Positions 557 through 9,150 of a DNA stretch of 10,734 bases are shown in pieces. Under the pieces are notes generated by a model that was not told the DNA's origin, ran no database searches, and saw nothing but the letters and a program-made list of their open reading frames with translations. Numbering within the stretch: position 1 is the first letter of the stretch; each line of letters opens with the position of its first letter. The stretch lies in NCBI GenBank assembly GCA_003660975.1, contig QMVG01000015.1:1-10734 (forward strand). The letters run 5' to 3'. The DNA comes from Candidatus Micrarchaeota archaeon. GTDB taxonomy: Archaea; B1Sed10-29; B47-G15. Made by a program: the position numbers and the translations under genes.

Positions 557-643
557 TGAACATTTTGCAAATATGTGAAGTTTGGCATAAGCCAAATTTG
601 GGTGGAACGAACGAAGTGAGTGAAACTGCATATTTGCTGTTCA
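557..643 (-). repeat. attC-like imperfect palindrome (candidate gene-cassette recombination site)
   Basis: The minus strand reads TGAAC-A-GCAAATATG-C-AGTT...AACT-TCA-CATATTTGC-AAAAT-GTTCA. It has AAC/GTT outer cores, a perfect 9-bp inner inverted repeat (567-575/629-637), asymmetric spacers, extrahelical bases and an internal hairpin TTTGGC-ATAA-GCCAAA (581-596). It lies just downstream of the deaminase gene. Confidence 0.65.
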
Positions 644-665
644 ACGACCGAACAAAGTGAGGCAA

Positions 666-684
666 GCAAAATCTTTGATTTTGC
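666..684. repeat. Perfect 8-bp hairpin GCAAAATC-TTT-GATTTTGC
   Basis: Seen directly. It is part of the structured spacer between the deaminase stop and the attC-like site. Confidence 0.85.
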
Positions 685-725
685 GCAGAGTTGCAGATGC
701 TCGGTGGAGGGAACATTTTATGATT

Positions 726-1196
726 TCACTCCCATTTACCATCACTCCAAGGAGAAGGATAAAGATCTTTTATTTTGAATTTCCTAATTCTCTTAAATAG
801 AAAATTGAAATCCTTTTGTGTATTTTCAAAATATGCTCCAGCACATAAAACACTTGCTTTACCATTAGAAAATTCATAAATTATTGTTCTACATAATCCA
901 CAAGGCGTTAGGTTTCCTCCTTTTCCTATCGGACCTATAACCAATATTGAGTTTATCTTTGCTTTTTCTGTTTCATAAAAAACCATATTAGCAATTGCTA
1001 CTCTTTCAGCGCAAATAGTTGCAGACCCTAAATTTGAGATAAAAGGAGAACCTTCATAAATATTTCCACTATTAGATAAAACACAAGCATAATATGTATC
1101 ATATAAACCTTTTTTTCTTCTCCTCTCTAATAATTTTGGAAAATTCTTTTTCGCAAATTCAATAAGTTTCTTTTCATCTTTTGTAAATTTCACCAT
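726..1196 (-). CDS. Cytidine deaminase, homotetrameric three-Cys zinc type (Cdd/blasticidin-S deaminase-like)
   Basis: 156 aa with CAE (ATICAERVAI) and PCxxC (TPCGLCR) zinc motifs, plus the N-terminal ACVLSNSGNIYEG strand pattern. About 29% GC by hand count over 721-1200. Confidence 0.85.
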   Translation of the reverse strand: MVKFTKDEKKLIEFAKKNFPKLLERRRKKGLYDTYYACVLSNSGNIYEGSPFISNLGSATICAERVAIANMVFYETEKAKINSILVIGPIGKGGNLTPCGLCRTIIYEFSNGKASVLCAGAYFENTQKDFNFLFKRIRKFKIKDLYPSPWSDGKWE

Positions 1197-1341
1197 AAAT
1201 AGTTTTGTAAGTTTGTTTTATTTATTAACTTATCTTTTTTCTTTTAGGGCGGTCGGGTAGGGGAAGGGCATCTGCAATTTCGTTGAGCATGTATTTCATG
1301 CAATTTTTAATTGCGTAACTTCTCAAATAAACGATAGAAGT

Positions 1342-1458
1342 AACTATAAACATAAAGCAAAGCTTGTTTTGATGTTTCTTTACTATGCTGGTCTTCACTT
1401 AGGTAAGGCTAGAAATCTGAAACGACGAGATATAGACTTTAATAGAGCAGAACCGTAA
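1342..1458 (+). pseudogene. Tyrosine recombinase (Xer/IntI-like) box I fragment, inactivated
   Basis: Translates to NYKHKAKLVLMFLYYAGLHLGKARNLKRRDIDFNRAEP*, which matches the (H)xLxxxLYxxGLRxxExxNLKxxDIDF motif. The catalytic Arg position is His (CAC), the conserved Glu is Lys (AAG), and a stop follows at 1456-1458. It is not in the ORF track. Confidence 0.8.
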
Positions 1459-1514: not shown

Positions 1515-3476
1515 GTGTTGAAATTCAAGTATATCGTAACATCAGCTCTGCCGTATGTAAATAATGTTCCTCACCTCGGCACTATCGTGGGATGCGTATT
1601 GCCGGCAGATGTATATTCAAGATACCTAAAACTGAAAGGTGAGGAATGCGTATATGTTTGCGGTACTGATGAGTATGGCACTCCTATTGCTGTCCAAGCA
1701 GAAAAAGAGGGCATAAGTCCGAAAGAGCTTTGTGACAAATATTATGAAATTCACAAAAAGGTTTACGAGGGCTTCAATATTAAATTTGATGTATTTTCAA
1801 GAACAAGCTCTCCGGAACACACAGAGCTGACCCAGTATTTCTACAATAAGCTCAAGAAGAAAGGTCATATCTATAAGAAGAAAGTGAAACAGTTATACTG
1901 CCCTAATTGCAAACGCTTTCTGCCTGATAGATATGTTATTGGCACCTGCCCTTACTGTGGTTATGAAAAGGCGAGAGGGGACCAGTGTGAGTCCTGTGGC
2001 AAGGTATTAGAACCATCCCAGTTATTAGATGCTAGGTGTAACATATGTAGTAACAAGCCTGTCTTGAAAGAAACAGAGCATTCATTTTTTAGGCTCTCTG
2101 CTTTTCAAAGGCAACTTAAAGAATGGATAGATAAAAACAAGCATTGGCCTGCTAATGCCAGGAGCTTTGCCTTGTCGTGGATAAGAGAGGGCCTCATAGA
2201 CAGGTCCATAACAAGAGATTTGGAATGGGGCGTTCCTTGTCCTGATGACCCCTCAAAAGTGATTTATGTCTGGTTCGATGCTCCAATAGGCTATATCACT
2301 TTCTCAAAACAGATAGGGAAGGAAGATTGGTGGAAAGATAAGAAAAACAGGATAGTCCATTTCATAGGAAAAGACAACATACCCTTCCATGCTATTATAT
2401 TCCCTGCTATGAATATGGGAGTAGGGGAATACATATTACCGTATCAAATAGCATCTGCTGAATACTTGAACTATGAAGGAGGCAAGTTCTCCAAATCAGA
2501 AGGTAGGGGAGTGTTTGGAGATGATGCATTAAAGCTATTTCCTGCTGATTATTGGAGATATGTGCTGATGTCAATGTATCCAGAAAACAGAGATGTGGAC
2601 TTCACATGGGAAGAATTTCAGAGAAAGGTAAACACTGAACTAAATGATGCCTTCGGTAATTTCGTCTATCGTGTAATAAGTTTTGTGCTGAGATTTCATG
2701 GAAGAGAGTTGGAAAAGCCAGAGCAATTCAGTGAAAAAGACAGGCAGATTGTCAACAAGGTTAAGGAGAGCTGCGCAAAAATTAACAAGCTGTATGAGAG
2801 CATAAAGTTAAAGGAAGCACTTCAAGAGATAATTGCCTTGGCGCGTCTGGGCAACCAGTACCTAAACGCAGAGGAACCATGGAAAAATAAGGACAGGGCG
2901 CAGAGTGTTATGTTTATATCTCTAAACATCGTAAAGACAATTGCCATATTAATAGAGCCGTTTCTCCCAGAAACTTCGGCTAAAATAAAGAAAGCCTTGA
3001 ACATTGAAGATATAGCATGGCACAAAGCTGCGGAATTGCTTGAATTTGGAAAAGTGGAGGCCATTGAGCCTTTATTTAGAAAGGTTGATGACAAGGAAGT
3101 AATTGAGTACAGGCAGAGATTCAGAAGCAAGGTTGAGGGGGTGAGAATCTTGGACACCGTCAGTTATGATGACTTCAAGAAGATGAAGCTAAAAGTGGCT
3201 GAGATAGTGAGTGTAGAGGACGTTGCAGGAGCAGATAAGCTGTACAAGCTCAGTATTGACATCGGAGGCGAGAAAAGAACACTAGTAGCAGGTCTGAAAG
3301 GAGATTATGACAAGGAGGAATTGCTAGGCAAGAAAATCATAGTTTTAACAAACCTAGAAGCTAAGAAAATAAGGGGCATTGAATCACAGGGCATGCTATT
3401 GGCTGCCGAGAAGGGAGATAAAGTCTCCTTGCTCACTGTTGATAGAAACATTGACAATGGAGCGGATGTTTTGTGA
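1515..3476 (+). CDS. metG: Methionine--tRNA ligase with C-terminal Trbp111/EMAPII-like tRNA-binding domain
   Basis: TSALPYVNNVPHLGT (HIGH), GTDEYG, four CxxC zinc-knuckle pairs, YVWFDAPIGY, HFIGKDN, KFSKS (KMSKS) and a C-terminal OB fold (DKLYKL...GIESQGMLLAA). The start is GTG 1515 or TTG 1518. Confidence 0.98.
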   Translation: MLKFKYIVTSALPYVNNVPHLGTIVGCVLPADVYSRYLKLKGEECVYVCGTDEYGTPIAVQAEKEGISPKELCDKYYEIHKKVYEGFNIKFDVFSRTSSPEHTELTQYFYNKLKKKGHIYKKKVKQLYCPNCKRFLPDRYVIGTCPYCGYEKARGDQCESCGKVLEPSQLLDARCNICSNKPVLKETEHSFFRLSAFQRQLKEWIDKNKHWPANARSFALSWIREGLIDRSITRDLEWGVPCPDDPSKVIYVWFDAPIGYITFSKQIGKEDWWKDKKNRIVHFIGKDNIPFHAIIFPAMNMGVGEYILPYQIASAEYLNYEGGKFSKSEGRGVFGDDALKLFPADYWRYVLMSMYPENRDVDFTWEEFQRKVNTELNDAFGNFVYRVISFVLRFHGRELEKPEQFSEKDRQIVNKVKESCAKINKLYESIKLKEALQEIIALARLGNQYLNAEEPWKNKDRAQSVMFISLNIVKTIAILIEPFLPETSAKIKKALNIEDIAWHKAAELLEFGKVEAIEPLFRKVDDKEVIEYRQRFRSKVEGVRILDTVSYDDFKKMKLKVAEIVSVEDVAGADKLYKLSIDIGGEKRTLVAGLKGDYDKEELLGKKIIVLTNLEAKKIRGIESQGMLLAAEKGDKVSLLTVDRNIDNGADVL

Positions 3477-4118: not shown

Positions 4119-5390
4119 ATGATTTTAAACATCCCTGTGATTCCAACTTTGGCACTGATAAGTTTCATAGTGCTTTTGGGTTTCATAGGTGATGTTATCT
4201 TCAAAAAAACTAACGTGCCTTCAATGATATGGCTGATGCTTTTCGGTTTACTCGTGGGCCCTATCTTTGGTTTGCTTGACATAAATGTTATAGAGCTGCT
4301 AACACAATTTGCAGCTCTCTTTAGCACACTGGCAGTTATCATCATACTTTTTGATGGCGGCATAAACATGGACTTATACAAGCTCTTTAAAGGGGCGCCA
4401 AGAGGTCTGCTGTTAAGTGTTTCAACATTTGTGTTAAGTGTTTTTGCAGTTGCTCTGATATTGGTATTTTTTGGCTTTAGGACAATTGATGCTTTCCTTC
4501 TTGGGTCAGTAATAGGAGGCACAAGCTCGCCTATTGTTATCCCGATAATATTGAAAACAAAAGGTTTGAGAGAGAACACGAAGATTATCCTCTCAATAGA
4601 ATCTGCCATTACGGATGCAATGTGTATAGTGCTCGCAATGGCCATAATCCAGCTTATCATAATAGAGGAAAGCATTGGGGGGCCTGCATCTCTCGGCATA
4701 CTCATAAAAGAACTGGCGAGTACGTTTAGCATAGGTGCAATGATAGGGGTCAGTGCTGGCTTGATCTGGACACCGCTAATGCACAGGGTTATGAAAGAGA
4801 AATTTTCATATGTTGTCACGCTGAGCGTTCTCTTCTTGGTTTATATTATAACTGCTTCTATTGTTGGTTCGACTGGTGGTACTGCTGCTGGCGCAATCGC
4901 GTGCTTTATGTTTGGCATCGTCTTGGGAAATGGGAAGAAGATATTCAACATCATAAGATATTACCATATGGGCTTTGAGATGGACCCAAGGACAAAAGAA
5001 TACCATTCACTTATGGCCTTCCTCATAAGGACATTTTTCTTTGTTTATTTGGGCTTGATTGTCTCCATCAACAGCGTTGAGATTGTCATCCTGGGAGTGG
5101 TGCTGTCAGCAGTGCTCTTCTTCATACGTCCGATCACTGTGGCCCTATCAACGAGAGGGGCTAGTTACTTCAGGCCATTTGACAAAAAGATAATGACTGT
5201 CATGATGCCCAGAGGCCTGGCTGCCGCAGTACTTGCGTACCTGCCTTACCAAATGCTCGGCAATGACATATACAGAATATTCGCAGACATCACATTTGTA
5301 GTTATAATAAGCACTGCCATAATGAGCACTGTTGGTTTTGTTTATGTCATGAAAAAGAACAGTGAAAAAAGCATCGAGAAGGAGACCTAA
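4119..5390 (+). CDS. Cation:proton antiporter, CPA1/NhaP type
   Basis: 423 aa with about 12-13 hydrophobic segments. Motifs GLLVGP, ILFDGG, GGTSSPIV, ESAITD, FFFVYLG and PRGLAAAVLA. SD-like GAGGATGA upstream. Confidence 0.92.
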   Translation: MILNIPVIPTLALISFIVLLGFIGDVIFKKTNVPSMIWLMLFGLLVGPIFGLLDINVIELLTQFAALFSTLAVIIILFDGGINMDLYKLFKGAPRGLLLSVSTFVLSVFAVALILVFFGFRTIDAFLLGSVIGGTSSPIVIPIILKTKGLRENTKIILSIESAITDAMCIVLAMAIIQLIIIEESIGGPASLGILIKELASTFSIGAMIGVSAGLIWTPLMHRVMKEKFSYVVTLSVLFLVYIITASIVGSTGGTAAGAIACFMFGIVLGNGKKIFNIIRYYHMGFEMDPRTKEYHSLMAFLIRTFFFVYLGLIVSINSVEIVILGVVLSAVLFFIRPITVALSTRGASYFRPFDKKIMTVMMPRGLAAAVLAYLPYQMLGNDIYRIFADITFVVIISTAIMSTVGFVYVMKKNSEKSIEKET

Positions 5391-5641: not shown

Positions 5642-6634
5642 TTATTGCTTTTGAACGTTTTTTAACGGCTTTGCGTCAATGCCCAGGCGCCTTTTTATCT
5701 GCCTCGCAAACTCATCCGTATAACCATGAACGGTGAAGACCTTGCTGGCCTGTGACCTCTCTACATAGTCAATCAATTGATTAAAATCAGAATGGCCGGA
5801 GAAAATGAAGCTTTTGTCCACCCCTTGTGAACGAAAGGAATAGTCTATAGCCCAGCCAGTACTAAGCGCCAACAAAACAGGTGATTTTGTTTGCTCTTTT
5901 ATAATCTTTTTAATCTCCGGCTTTACAAAGCGGCGGCTCATAACAGCAATAAAAGGCTTTTTTATGACTTCATCCCAGTCCTCTGATAATGGAGACACAT
6001 AATCCAAATTCAGACCGTGCTTTACATAAAGCTCGGAATAAGCAGCAATATCCCTGCTAACCAAAGGAGACAAAGAGATATTGTTTAATACTCTTATTAG
6101 CTCCTGTGCTTTGCCGAGTGCATAAGCTGAAAAGATAATGGTCTTTTCTTTATTTTCTTTAACCCAGCTTTCAATTTCCTCAACTACCTCTGCAACGCTG
6201 GGAAATACATATCTTGGATGCCCATATGTGGACTCAACTATTAGTATATCTGCTTCTGGTGGCTCACAAGCCTCATAAAATACAGAGCTTGCTGCTCTGA
6301 AATCTCCGGAATACAGGATAGATTCCCCATCTTCCTCTATCAAAAACTGCGCAGAACCGAGAATGTGCTTTGCATCATAGGCAGTAATGCTAATGCCGTC
6401 TAATTTGTATGTCTTTCCGTATTTGACTGTCTTTGGCTTCAATGACATGCCAGAAAGCTCAAATGTTGGGGAAGTCATTACTGTTTCGCTCTTATGTCCG
6501 GCCAAATGGTCTGAATGTGCATGGCTGATGGCTGCAAAGCCATCTTCTGGTTTTATTGCCTTTTTTGAATCAAGATAGAGCGTGGACTCCTTTCCTTCTA
6601 TGACAATGGCACTGCTCTTCTTGTAAACCTTCAT
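5642..6634 (-). CDS. Metallo-beta-lactamase fold, beta-CASP family nuclease (COG1236-like)
   Basis: Motifs LYLD, SHAHSDH, HILGS, YSGDF, ESTYG, YALGKAQE, SGHSD and TVHG. The likely start is ATG 6634, 20 nt downstream of a TTTAAACT box (6662-6655). Confidence 0.9.
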   Translation of the reverse strand: MKVYKKSSAIVIEGKESTLYLDSKKAIKPEDGFAAISHAHSDHLAGHKSETVMTSPTFELSGMSLKPKTVKYGKTYKLDGISITAYDAKHILGSAQFLIEEDGESILYSGDFRAASSVFYEACEPPEADILIVESTYGHPRYVFPSVAEVVEEIESWVKENKEKTIIFSAYALGKAQELIRVLNNISLSPLVSRDIAAYSELYVKHGLNLDYVSPLSEDWDEVIKKPFIAVMSRRFVKPEIKKIIKEQTKSPVLLALSTGWAIDYSFRSQGVDKSFIFSGHSDFNQLIDYVERSQASKVFTVHGYTDEFARQIKRRLGIDAKPLKNVQKQ

Positions 6635-6662: not shown

Positions 6663-7946
6663 TTACTTCTTCTTTTTGCTTTTCTTTTCCTCTTTTTCTG
6701 CCTCTCTCACCAACTTTTTCAAGTACTCTATTGAGTTTTCTCCTTCCTCTGGAGGATTCTCTTCAATCATCTTCTCAAATCTCTTTTTGGCGCCAACAAT
6801 AGCAAGCTGGTCTTCAAGCTGGTTTCTCTGCCGTATATACAGCAAAATCAGAAGCAGGATAACAAAAACCAGCACACCCAACATTATTGTTGAACTGCCT
6901 CCGAATAGCATACCTGTTATGCCTGTGCTGTAAACCCCTATCTTATACCCAGCAATCAGCAGAGGCAGAGATGCAACTGTTTCACTCCCTTTCACCAACA
7001 GAAGCTCTGTCTTGTGTTCATCGAAATCGCTGGCTTTTATTATAATCTCTCTGTCAAGTATCTGGAAGGCCCTTAAATCAAAAGCTTCATTATTTTCTAT
7101 GCTCCATCCAGCTGGCAGGTCGGACAAAGTGAAAAGGAGGTTGTTGGCATCTGTCGGGCCCTTGTTCTCCACATTAACTCTTATTTTATAACCTTCTACA
7201 TTGCCTTCCTCATCCTTTAAAGGCTCCATTGCAATCAATCTCATGGAAACCATGCTCTCATATGAGAACTTTTTCCATATTTTCACCTTGACTTTTGTCG
7301 AGCTTTCCACATTTCCAGAAGCAGCTGTTATCGTGAACTCTTTTTGACCATCGGGATAATCAGCGGGGACCCCAATCTTAATGGAGAGGTCTTTTGACTG
7401 TCCTGCTTCTAAATTAAATACAGGAGGGTATTGGGGGTCAAAAGCAGTTGGGATGTCCCCGCTTATGACTATGTTTTTTAATTCCTCTTCACCTAGATTT
7501 CTTACCAATATCCTTAAGTTCTGCTCTTCTCCCTGCCTTACAGTGACTGATTCAGTTATCGGGTCTACAACCAGCTTCTCACCGCTTTCTTCAACATCAA
7601 CTATTAACTTTAATCTGCTTGATGTCTCGCCATCATACGCAATCACATCAATTGGGTGCAGGCCTTTCTCAAGGCCAACTGCAGGCACCCATATATCAAA
7701 ATAATCTCTAGTATAAGGCAACATATGAAAGCTCTCTTTTGATATGGAAAAAGGCAAATCTGTTTTAACTAGGATTGTTATATCTCTTTCGTCAGGCACA
7801 TTGTTTCTTATCATTACCGAGAAGTGAGCTACATCCTTTTCAGATGATAGGCTCACTATTGGATTTTCAACAATCATAACAGGTTCAGCAATAGCAATAG
7901 GCATAAATGCAACAAAGAGCAGTATTGAGAGCAATTTTACTTTCAT
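6663..7946 (-). CDS. Secreted, membrane-anchored protein with tandem Ig-like domains (NEW3/COG1470-like)
   Basis: ATG 7946 has SD AGGAGGT. Signal peptide MKVKLLSILLFVAFMPIAIA, repeated VRNLG / VENKG / LPAGWS Ig-like motifs, a C-terminal TM helix and a Lys-rich tail. Confidence 0.8.
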   Translation of the reverse strand: MKVKLLSILLFVAFMPIAIAEPVMIVENPIVSLSSEKDVAHFSVMIRNNVPDERDITILVKTDLPFSISKESFHMLPYTRDYFDIWVPAVGLEKGLHPIDVIAYDGETSSRLKLIVDVEESGEKLVVDPITESVTVRQGEEQNLRILVRNLGEEELKNIVISGDIPTAFDPQYPPVFNLEAGQSKDLSIKIGVPADYPDGQKEFTITAASGNVESSTKVKVKIWKKFSYESMVSMRLIAMEPLKDEEGNVEGYKIRVNVENKGPTDANNLLFTLSDLPAGWSIENNEAFDLRAFQILDREIIIKASDFDEHKTELLLVKGSETVASLPLLIAGYKIGVYSTGITGMLFGGSSTIMLGVLVFVILLLILLYIRQRNQLEDQLAIVGAKKRFEKMIEENPPEEGENSIEYLKKLVREAEKEEKKSKKKK

Positions 7947-8833: not shown

Positions 8834-8977
8834 TGGGGTCAGGGGGAATCGAACCCCCAGCCGGAGGTATCTCCACACTACAAGAGTGCATACCTCTGGG
8901 AAATCATTGCGCAAGAGCGCTCAGCGCTCCAGAAAAGTGTTCTGGAGCCTCCGATGTTACCACTACACCATGACCCC
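8834..8977 (-). tRNA. tRNA-Trp(CCA) with 73-nt intron at 37/38 (8869-8941)
   Basis: Acceptor GGGGTCA/TGACCCC plus discriminator A, D stem GTGT/ACAT, anticodon stem GGAGG/CCTCC with loop CT-CCA-G^A, and T arm GGGGG-TTCGATT-CCCCC. Canonical BHB: CTCC/GGAG helix, bulges AG^A and AT^A, outer helix ACACT/AGTGT. The 3' CCA is not encoded. Confidence 0.96.
8869..8941 (-). ncRNA. Intron-encoded partial box C/D guide RNA (predicted Cm34 of tRNA-Trp)
   Basis: Guide UUCUGGAGC (8934-8926) pairs 9/9 with GCUCCAGAA (8948-8940). A CUGA box at 8924-8921 puts the N-5 base opposite C34. It is followed by the stem GCGC-UCUU-GCGC and a C'-like AUGAUUU (8907-8901). Confidence 0.65.
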
Positions 8978-9015: not shown

Positions 9016-9150
9016 CGGGCCAGGGGGGATTTGAACCCCCGACCTACAGCTCGCTCCAACCCCTTTCTTTTCCGTCAACGCTTTTCCAGAGGAATAACAG
9101 GAAAAGGGTTGTAGGAGGCTGTCGCCCTGTCCAGACTAGGCTACTGGCCC
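9016..9150 (-). tRNA. tRNA-Arg(CCT) with 60-nt intron at 37/38 (9052-9111)
   Basis: Acceptor GGGCCAG/CTGGCCC plus discriminator G, D stem GCCT/GGGC, anticodon stem ACAGC/GCTGT with loop CT-CCT-A^A, and T arm GGGGG-TTCAAAT-CCCCC. BHB: CTCC/GGAG helix, bulges TA^C and CG^A, outer helix AACCCTTTTC/GAAAGGGGTT. Confidence 0.96.

Follow-up and report, generated by a model that had tools for sequence, protein, structure and literature searches.

Bases 556–1455 of the stretch analysed here are, we conclude with fair confidence, the decayed head of an integron-like cassette platform that has a XerA-like recombinase in place of the integron integrase IntI. The stretch (the window) is 10,734 nucleotides long and is the entire 10.7-kb contig C15 (QMVG01000015.1) of a Candidatus Micrarchaeota metagenome-assembled genome (MAG), G000 (1.33 Mb, 130 contigs, GC 0.435). 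The original prediction, made from the letters of this DNA, had proposed an integron-like layout, and that layout held: a recombinase gene, here a relic, diverges from a cassette open reading frame (ORF) with a folded AAC...GTT site at its end. The folded site belongs to a conserved family, R1, and the relic to a family of recombinases that we call P0036-type. The parts of the locus are as follows.

556–648, + strand: attC-like folded site of the R1 family (R1 covariance model 97.1 bits, E 1.8e-21)
649–725, + strand: cassette-end module, from the ORF stop to the attC-like site, with small hairpins and then a GAGTT...GC-rich motif
726–1196, − strand: cassette ORF, divergent cytidine-deaminase fold, 156 aa, GC 0.295
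1197–1285, − strand: cassette 5' region, an A/T-rich, putatively promoter-like stretch upstream of the ATG
1286–1315, no strand assigned: 'B', a sequence of ~30 nt with a small hairpin, 90% identical to C16:719–748 of the same genome
1316–1319, + strand: TAAC junction, where the recombinase similarity starts (GTTAC on the opposite strand)
1315–1455, + strand: relic of a P0036-type (XerA-like) tyrosine recombinase, residues ~107–150 (box I), with a stop at 1456–1458

Results

The palindrome is a member of a conserved family of folded sites

The palindrome at 557–643 has arms of 6 and 9 bp, a one-sided 4-nt bulge and an inner hairpin. It folds with z = -2.9 on either strand, and 1–2 of 200 shuffles fold equally well. 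The original prediction had described it as an AAC...GTT palindrome with extrahelical bases. The palindrome itself is confirmed by its R1 score of 97.1 bits; unpaired bases are indeed present, but as the 4-nt bulge and not as single flipped bases. Read from the outside in, the window site consists of an R box (AAC/GTT, with the pairing GAACA...TGTTC), the 4-nt bulge, an L stem of 9–11 bp, the core GAAGTT-hairpin-AATTTGGG, a variable part and the closing arm. The + strand is the one that folds, and it runs antisense to the cassette ORF. At 549–562 the 5' R box appears partly duplicated (TAACAT-GG-TGAACAT) where relatives have a single TAACAT, which could be the footprint of an earlier recombination or of a small duplication.

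A blastn search of G000 with the 87-nt palindrome found no further copy, and diverged copies came up only with the R1 structure model. In a set of 185,579 species genomes, a gapped pattern taken from the window matched at eight places: six are clear homologues and two look like chance. The hosts of the six homologues are archaeal MAGs (Aenigmatarchaeota, Woesearchaeota, Ca. Methanoxibalbensis and an uncultured archaeon) and two MAGs labelled bacterial. The R1 covariance model was built from seven copies and later recovered diverged ones; a comparison of the window and six R1 loci with Rfam gave no match at E ≤ 1. Since it belongs to a conserved family, the palindrome is far beyond chance.

The structure was examined in an alignment of 24 sites, which was fitted to the model and so favours the structure: 91.8% of its cells pair, against 76.4% after shuffling and 23–45% with slid partners. 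Compensatory changes were seen at 14 of 25 pairs, and the outer-helix AAC/GTT pairs (A-U, A-U and C-G of helix 1) are kept in 23 of the 24 sites. The slid-partner controls, together with the visible stem swaps, argue that the R1 structure is real. One G.T pair is invariant (24/24), so that a single strand folds well and the folding strand is fixed; at every array examined the well-folding strand was antisense to the neighbouring ORF. The L stem (11 bp) has no conserved single-base bulge, and most of the 24 sites carry a one-sided bulge of 3–4 nt in the 5' arm.

R1 sites form arrays after co-oriented, unrelated ORFs

The original prediction had staked itself on similar copies of the 557–643 element standing downstream of unrelated ORFs, and many were found. 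R1 sites form arrays after co-oriented, unrelated ORFs in MAGs of DPANN and other archaea, and also in the two MAGs labelled bacterial. Five genomes with such arrays have 2–17 sites each, at a spacing of 0.6–2.5 kb. At locus L029 three R1 sites alternate with three opposite-strand ORFs (an unknown, a PIN protein and a two-transmembrane protein), and the array adjoins a divergent, truncated recombinase gene. A genome of the same class as G000 (G020) has three R1 sites in a row. G000 itself carries R1 sites elsewhere on contigs C14 (three), C118 (two), C1 and C3 (one each). Elsewhere an end module usually lies between the ORF stop and the R1 site, with small hairpins followed by GAGTT and a GC-rich run; in the window, bases 630–696, which overlap this module, are 92.5% identical to C16:713–648.

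According to the parts of Ghaly et al. 2022 used here (PMC9668308), a cluster of attC sites lacking integron integrases (CALIN) is called where at least two attC sites lie less than 4 kb apart. By this measure G000 has clusters on C14 (three sites) and C118 (two). On C14 (2900–11228), R1 sites at 4166–4245, 5921–6004 and 6941–7028 separate same-strand ORFs of 292–542 aa; beyond them are a methyltransferase-like gene and a tyrosine recombinase truncated where the contig stops. This is a second cassette cluster in the genome.

The relic belongs to a patchy family of XerA-like recombinases

The original prediction had also reported a tyrosine-recombinase box I fragment on the + strand. The fragment stands (phmmer E 7e-6; 64% identity to P0036), but not its start at 1342, as homology begins at 1315. 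With full-length P0036 as the query, tblastn matched window positions 1315–1446 at 64% identity over 44 aa (E 1.5e-9), equivalent to residues 107–148 of the 269-aa relatives. The open frame of the relic runs from 1261 to 1455, bounded by stops at 1258–1260 and 1456–1458. It lacks a start codon, the box-I catalytic Arg has become His, and nothing is left beyond residue ~150. Scores on family models are weak: PF00589 gave 16 bits (E 0.011; E 0.025 genome-wide) and the archaeal XerA model NF040815 (XerA_Arch) 15.6 bits (E 0.009), the relic scoring on the XerA model only.

An exhaustive phmmer search of 1.84 billion representative proteins with the fragment returned four matches at E ≤ 0.001, of which three were short box-I pieces (E 7e-6, 5e-5 and 2.5e-4) and the fourth an unrelated repeat protein. 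A word-index search for longer proteins with the 65-aa fragment found none; with one of the box-I pieces as the query, 217 longer proteins were obtained, mostly of 269 aa and from DPANN lineages. The best intact recombinase gene of G000, on C22, is 36% identical to P0036. A degenerate second half-site at 1313–1345 and the palindrome at 1348–1377 were considered and rejected: half-site hidden Markov models did not recover them (E ≤ 100), and their letters are explained as recombinase codons.

The P0036-type proteins fall below the 220-bit cut-off of NF040815 (P0036 206.8 bits, P0048 208.9, P0014 209.8 and the G041:C48 copy 205.5), whereas an ordinary Micrarchaeota XerA (G010:C4) scores 276.4 bits. 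Among 101 genomes around the Woesearchaeota MAG G043, 80 match P0036 at E ≤ 1e-40, with ordinary XerA-like copies 36–49% identical to it. Seven of the 101 have a P0036-type copy (62–99% identical), usually beside an ordinary one, as do 18 of 151 genomes around an Aenigmatarchaeota MAG. Overall, P0036-type copies are 59–99% identical to P0036 and come from sources whose names span several DPANN groups. Judged by these identities and this distribution, the P0036-type is a distinct, patchy second paralogue and not the ordinary housekeeping XerA. Viral contigs held no close relative of P0036, the best being 32% identical.

P0036-type genes adjoin R1 arrays in the geometry of the window

We surveyed R1 sites (E < 1e-3) around 25 P0036-type and 23 ordinary XerA loci. 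At 12 of the 25 P0036-type loci an R1 site lay 0.45–1.5 kb upstream of the start, on the gene's own strand and with the cassettes divergent, and several of these loci had two R1 sites with opposite-strand ORFs between them. Only one of the 23 ordinary XerA loci had an R1 site. In strand and side, the R1 site agreed with the window at all 12 intact R1-bearing P0036-type loci. The original prediction had named, as an outcome that would refute it, full-length homologues that were housekeeping XerA proteins with no palindrome-delimited genes nearby; what was found is a patchy paralogue that adjoins R1 arrays.

The cassette genes at these loci are mutually unrelated (isochorismatase, Yip1, histidine phosphatase, kinase, PemK). 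Two genomes have a histidine-phosphatase cassette in their arrays (L164, 305–850; L166, 2908–3471), a candidate for a single cassette in two contexts. Transposase-like genes, named by eye, lie beside P0036-type genes at L164 (3543–4433, zinc-finger insertion-sequence type) and L170 (4948–5421, IS200-like).

Of the 13 P0036-type loci without R1, seven offer less than 220 nt of upstream contig. The contigs at L171, L183, L184, L185, L188, L130 and L168 end ~2–220 nt upstream of the P0036-type gene, where arrays begin elsewhere. Such contig ends may be the assembly signature of variable arrays that carry repeats.

A further recombinase relic was seen at L117 (G042:C7, 7330–7857) of Ca. Methanoxibalbensis. 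It is an 82-aa box-II piece of this recombinase type, 50% identical to P0036, that lies just after a stretch with tRNA-like translation and just before an R1 array, and it is the sole PF00589 match in that genome.

These data bear on the simplest alternative, in which a solitary cassette or repeat happens to lie near an unrelated Xer-type pseudogene, such as the stump of an integrated element, with no functional link between them. The window indeed has a single complete R1 site, scattered single sites lie on C1 and C3 of G000, and tyrosine-recombinase relics are common in these MAGs. Against this stand the match in strand and side with every intact R1-bearing locus, the cassette 5' end that abuts the relic at TAAC, and the presence of R1 at 11–12 of 25 P0036-type loci versus the single ordinary XerA locus. 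We therefore consider a chance neighbourhood unlikely, although it is the alternative that survives best.

A candidate attI-like site and the junction inside the recombinase frame

At eight P0036-type loci read by eye, a TAAC (TAC in L130) with a hairpin of ~10 bp and covarying arms lies ~90 nt upstream of the start. With a crude hairpin script, 8 of 24 loci showed a stem of 8 bp or longer at 88–115 nt, and some matches fell at other positions. The flank to the left of this upstream TAAC resembles the flank to the left of the R1 sites of the same array. We propose the TAAC-plus-hairpin as a candidate attI-like insertion point; no attI is left in the window.

In the window the recombinase homology begins exactly at GTAAC. 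The GTA-ACT at the start of the relic corresponds to the Val-Thr codons of P0036 residues 107–108, and the same two codons also read GTAAC in the 99%-identical copy in L165. To the left of the GTAAC lies the cassette 5' region, in which bases 1262–1282 are similar to the '...ATTTCG' sequence that flanks R1 and attI-like sites on their left at other loci. The whole spacer from the deaminase ORF to metG, the gene that follows, measures 318 nt.

The cassette encodes a divergent deaminase

The low-GC deaminase gene announced by the original prediction was borne out. The ORF (726–1196, − strand) is intact, scores 31.9 bits on PF00383 (gathering cut-off 25), and has both zinc-binding motifs, CAE and PCxxC, in its translation. 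On TIGR01354 it gives E 1.9e-12, yet at 47.6 bits it stays below the cytidine deaminase equivalog cut-off of 113.65, and its best relative of solved structure is a cytidine deaminase (E 3.6e-5). Its GC of 0.295 compares with 0.41 for metG and 0.435 for the genome. The gene is present in one of 31 genomes of the phylum and in none of 401 relatives of the Woesearchaeota MAG G043, among which no second context for the cassette was found. In a set of 5.8 billion proteins there are 20 relatives at E ≤ 1e-5, 59–100% identical. The deaminase is evidently an acquired accessory gene. A protein identical to it, P0125, is recorded on a 128-kb contig of another assembly.

The source population varies at the locus

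Contig C16 of G000 starts with the last 18 codons of a deaminase gene (94% identical), after which come a GNAT gene, a partial site, the 30-nt 'B', a third ORF, a second partial site and then housekeeping genes. The claim of the original prediction that the locus kept one cassette is thus correct for the haplotype of the window and not for the C16 branch, which has two more. The damaged R1-type sites of C16 lie at 620–800 and 1365–1450; one keeps only the 3' arm and the end module, joined to 'B', while of the other only the 5' arm with its first hairpin survives. The C16 cassettes look fixed in place. A C16 site termed 'E3' and 'B' itself could not be folded by eye into an R1-like site, and neither gave an R1 score.

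We also examined Logan contigs of two runs, which may include the source sample, taking unitig depths as a rough guide to haplotype shares. Depth was ~42x on the metG side, ~17x over the unitig at 892–1392, which takes in the spacer and most of the deaminase gene, and 6–7x over the window's own continuation. A variant of 1365–1447 with 11 differences stood at ~23x, and one contig was identical to the window over 559–702 and then diverged into other sequence. We read these contigs as coming from a population with at least three haplotypes that appear to differ in cassette content at this locus. A joint of 649 to 1209 in run X3 was considered as an excision product and rejected as too weak, with 22 letters on its shorter side and a single contig.

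Neighbouring genes

The locus is flanked by two further features.

3–503, + strand: ORF with an open 5' end and no Pfam or NCBIfam family match, which converges on the attC-like site and, in this haplotype, adjoins the cassette on its distal side
1515–3476, + strand: metG, methionyl-tRNA synthetase, a housekeeping gene that borders the locus on the side of the recombinase

G000 was the sole member of its family among the genomes compared. The metG protein has 64 metagenome relatives, the best 52% identical, and the R1 model gave no match in the 13 closest metG loci from metagenome contigs. Two tRNA genes with long insertions lie at 8834–8977 and 9016–9150 on the − strand (insertions of 77 and 62 nt). 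They match the Rfam tRNA model (44.8 and 54.2 bits), which identifies the source genome as archaeal; ARAGORN misses both.

Discussion

Strength of the reading

We favour the view that the locus is the decayed head of a cassette platform with a XerA-like recombinase. In its favour, when only standard loci are counted, R1 sites are present at 11 of 25 P0036-type and 1 of 23 ordinary loci (Fisher p = 0.0015). Several points weigh against it. The p value overstates the difference because the surveyed genomes are mutually related. The twelfth P0036-type locus, G139:C1, was counted after its flank had been extended, and the control loci had no such extension. No R1 site was present at two loci with intact P0036-type genes, G173:C2 (with the full 1.5-kb flank) and G078:C68 (with ~900 nt), and a third intact copy, G041:C48, sits among housekeeping genes with less than 200 nt of contig upstream. 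The relic at G042:C7 is co-directional with its cassettes, which is another geometry. In the window, the relic is 44–65 codons long and only 44 aa of it are homologous; the single complete R1 site makes the locus a singleton by the two-site measure, with two damaged sites on C16, and 'B' and these damaged sites are not explained by a simple cassette model. Finally, no recombination, excised circle or empty site was observed.

Likeness to integrons and to XerA

Integrons are defined by IntI, whose additional domain is regarded as indispensable for recognition of the folded attC site. The canonical attC has a two-sided unpaired central spacer, together with extrahelical bases in the L box. The system described here shares much with integrons and CALINs. 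A recombinase heads an array of unrelated cassettes, promoter-poor or with promoters of their own, each ending in an imperfect palindrome closed by AAC/GTT. The sites vary in sequence and keep their structure, and one strand is favoured for folding. They are alike within a genome and common to archaeal and bacterial-labelled MAGs, and many of the arrays have no recombinase.

The differences lie in the site and in the enzyme. Unlike the canonical attC, R1 has a one-sided 4-nt bulge and an L stem without conserved extrahelical bases; its inner core is conserved, and a hairpin module comes in addition. Unlike IntI, the P0036-type scores best as XerA-like and lacks the IntI-specific insertion. Compared with VchIntIA (PDB 2a3v), it has 17 residues where the integrase has 62. 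The integron integrase model TIGR02249 aligns to it in two stretches, skipping ~positions 177–237, and reaches 189.5 bits against a cut-off of 265. On both counts the IntI-specific domain is absent from these full-length relatives; the relic itself is too short to reach that region.

The likeness to XerA is closer at the level of the enzyme. In structure and in sequence, the best relatives of the full-length recombinase are XerA proteins (PDB 4a8e and 5hxy; 138.5 and 137.2 bits), and the P0036-type has the two-domain size of ~270 aa. It differs from XerA in scoring 205–210 bits, below the 220-bit cut-off, in its patchy distribution, usually as a second copy, and in adjoining cassette arrays.

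Would the locus then be the fossil of a canonical integron, the relic being a true IntI with its specific domain and R1 an ordinary attC? The integron-like geometry and the AAC/GTT R box would suit this, archaeal integrons and CALINs are known (PMC9668308, in the parts used here), and the truncated recombinase gene at L029 scores 130.6 bits on the integron-integrase model against 126.7 on the XerA model. Against it, the relic scores on the XerA model only, its full-length relatives, 64% identical, have no insertion, and the R1 L stem has no conserved extrahelical base. A search of five R1-bearing genomes, all MAGs, found no integron integrase above the TIGR02249 cut-off. We find this explanation very improbable: with relatives that are XerA-like and without the IntI-specific insertion, the relic would not come from a canonical integron. 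The fossil integron of the original prediction is thereby retained as far as the loss of the recombinase goes and given up as an integron in the strict sense, its relatives being XerA-like proteins of 269 aa without the IntI-specific domain. Its fallback, a different Xer-like cassette system, is the version that we favour, with a second paralogue at R1 arrays. That R1 is no recombination site but a structured RNA, a terminator or a gene-end regulatory element would agree with the strong covariation, the invariant pair of G.U type and the conserved unpaired motifs, yet it is hardly credible given that Rfam has no match at E ≤ 1 for the window and six R1 loci, that the antisense folding strand would need a promoter of its own at 10–17 copies per genome, that the AAC/GTT ends, the common cassette flanks and the TAAC site beside the recombinase gene fit DNA recombination, and that a Logan contig has the same site joined to a different gene.

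Relation to published work

Ghaly et al. 2022 reported integrons in 75 archaeal MAGs from nine phyla, with 539 attC sites (PMC9668308). In the parts of that paper used here, these are mostly clusters without IntI, the six IntIs are all described as having the IntI-specific domain, and the main text nowhere uses the name 'Micrarchaeota'. Smyshlyaev et al. 2021 (PMC8138268) describe the insertion as 'not fully conserved' in the integron-like subgroup, and the passages used here do not link such proteins to arrays. A review of archaeal tyrosine recombinases mentions integrons in passing in the part used here (PMC8371274). The full-text literature searches made here returned no paper on a Xer-type recombinase at cassette arrays.

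A model for the platform and its decay

The intact relatives have a consistent arrangement, in which a promoter and the TAAC-plus-hairpin, as the candidate attI, precede a 269-aa recombinase gene. Upstream of this site, on the opposite strand, are cassettes of unrelated genes, each ending in a hairpin module and an R1 site of ~90 nt. The R1 strand that matches the coding strand of the recombinase folds into the stem closed by AAC/GTT. Much as in integrons, cassettes would be inserted, excised and shuffled by recombination at this triplet.

What is left in the window is a single cassette, the deaminase gene with its own promoter-like region and a complete R1 site, next to a dead recombinase gene. 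The cassette 5' end is fused at the TAAC inside the recombinase frame, and this single junction suggests off-target recombination at a pseudo-site. For IntI, off-target recombination at GTT-containing secondary sites is known (bioRxiv 10.1101/2022.09.11.507474, PMC10127599; parts of these sources). The boundary in the window resembles such events, since it lies at GTTAC/GTAAC within coding sequence, as recombination of an attC with a pseudo-site would leave it. It differs from them in that the enzyme would be of Xer type and the target its own gene. Such an event would have deleted the attI-like site and the first ~106 codons; the 3' two-thirds of the gene, ahead of metG, has gone as well. The cassette would now be mobile solely with a recombinase supplied in trans.

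Significance

A wider proposal can be made, which in our estimation is as open to dispute as to acceptance: that DPANN and other archaea harbour a second integron lineage, with a XerA-derived recombinase without the IntI domain, R1 sites and a TAAC-hairpin attI, and that the copy in the window destroyed its own recombinase. The window itself is a dead single-cassette remnant, and the interest lies in the system to which it belongs. For G000, the locus indicates strain-level cassette turnover beside an essential gene. If the wider proposal is true, it would explain why most archaeal attC clusters seem to be without an integrase and how different phyla come to have sites and recombinases that are nearly identical, and it would provide a candidate recombinase for archaeal arrays that seemingly have no integrase. 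Recombination of single-stranded DNA would gain a small pair of enzyme and site that can be tested, and the integron design would have more than one origin, or have been simplified repeatedly.

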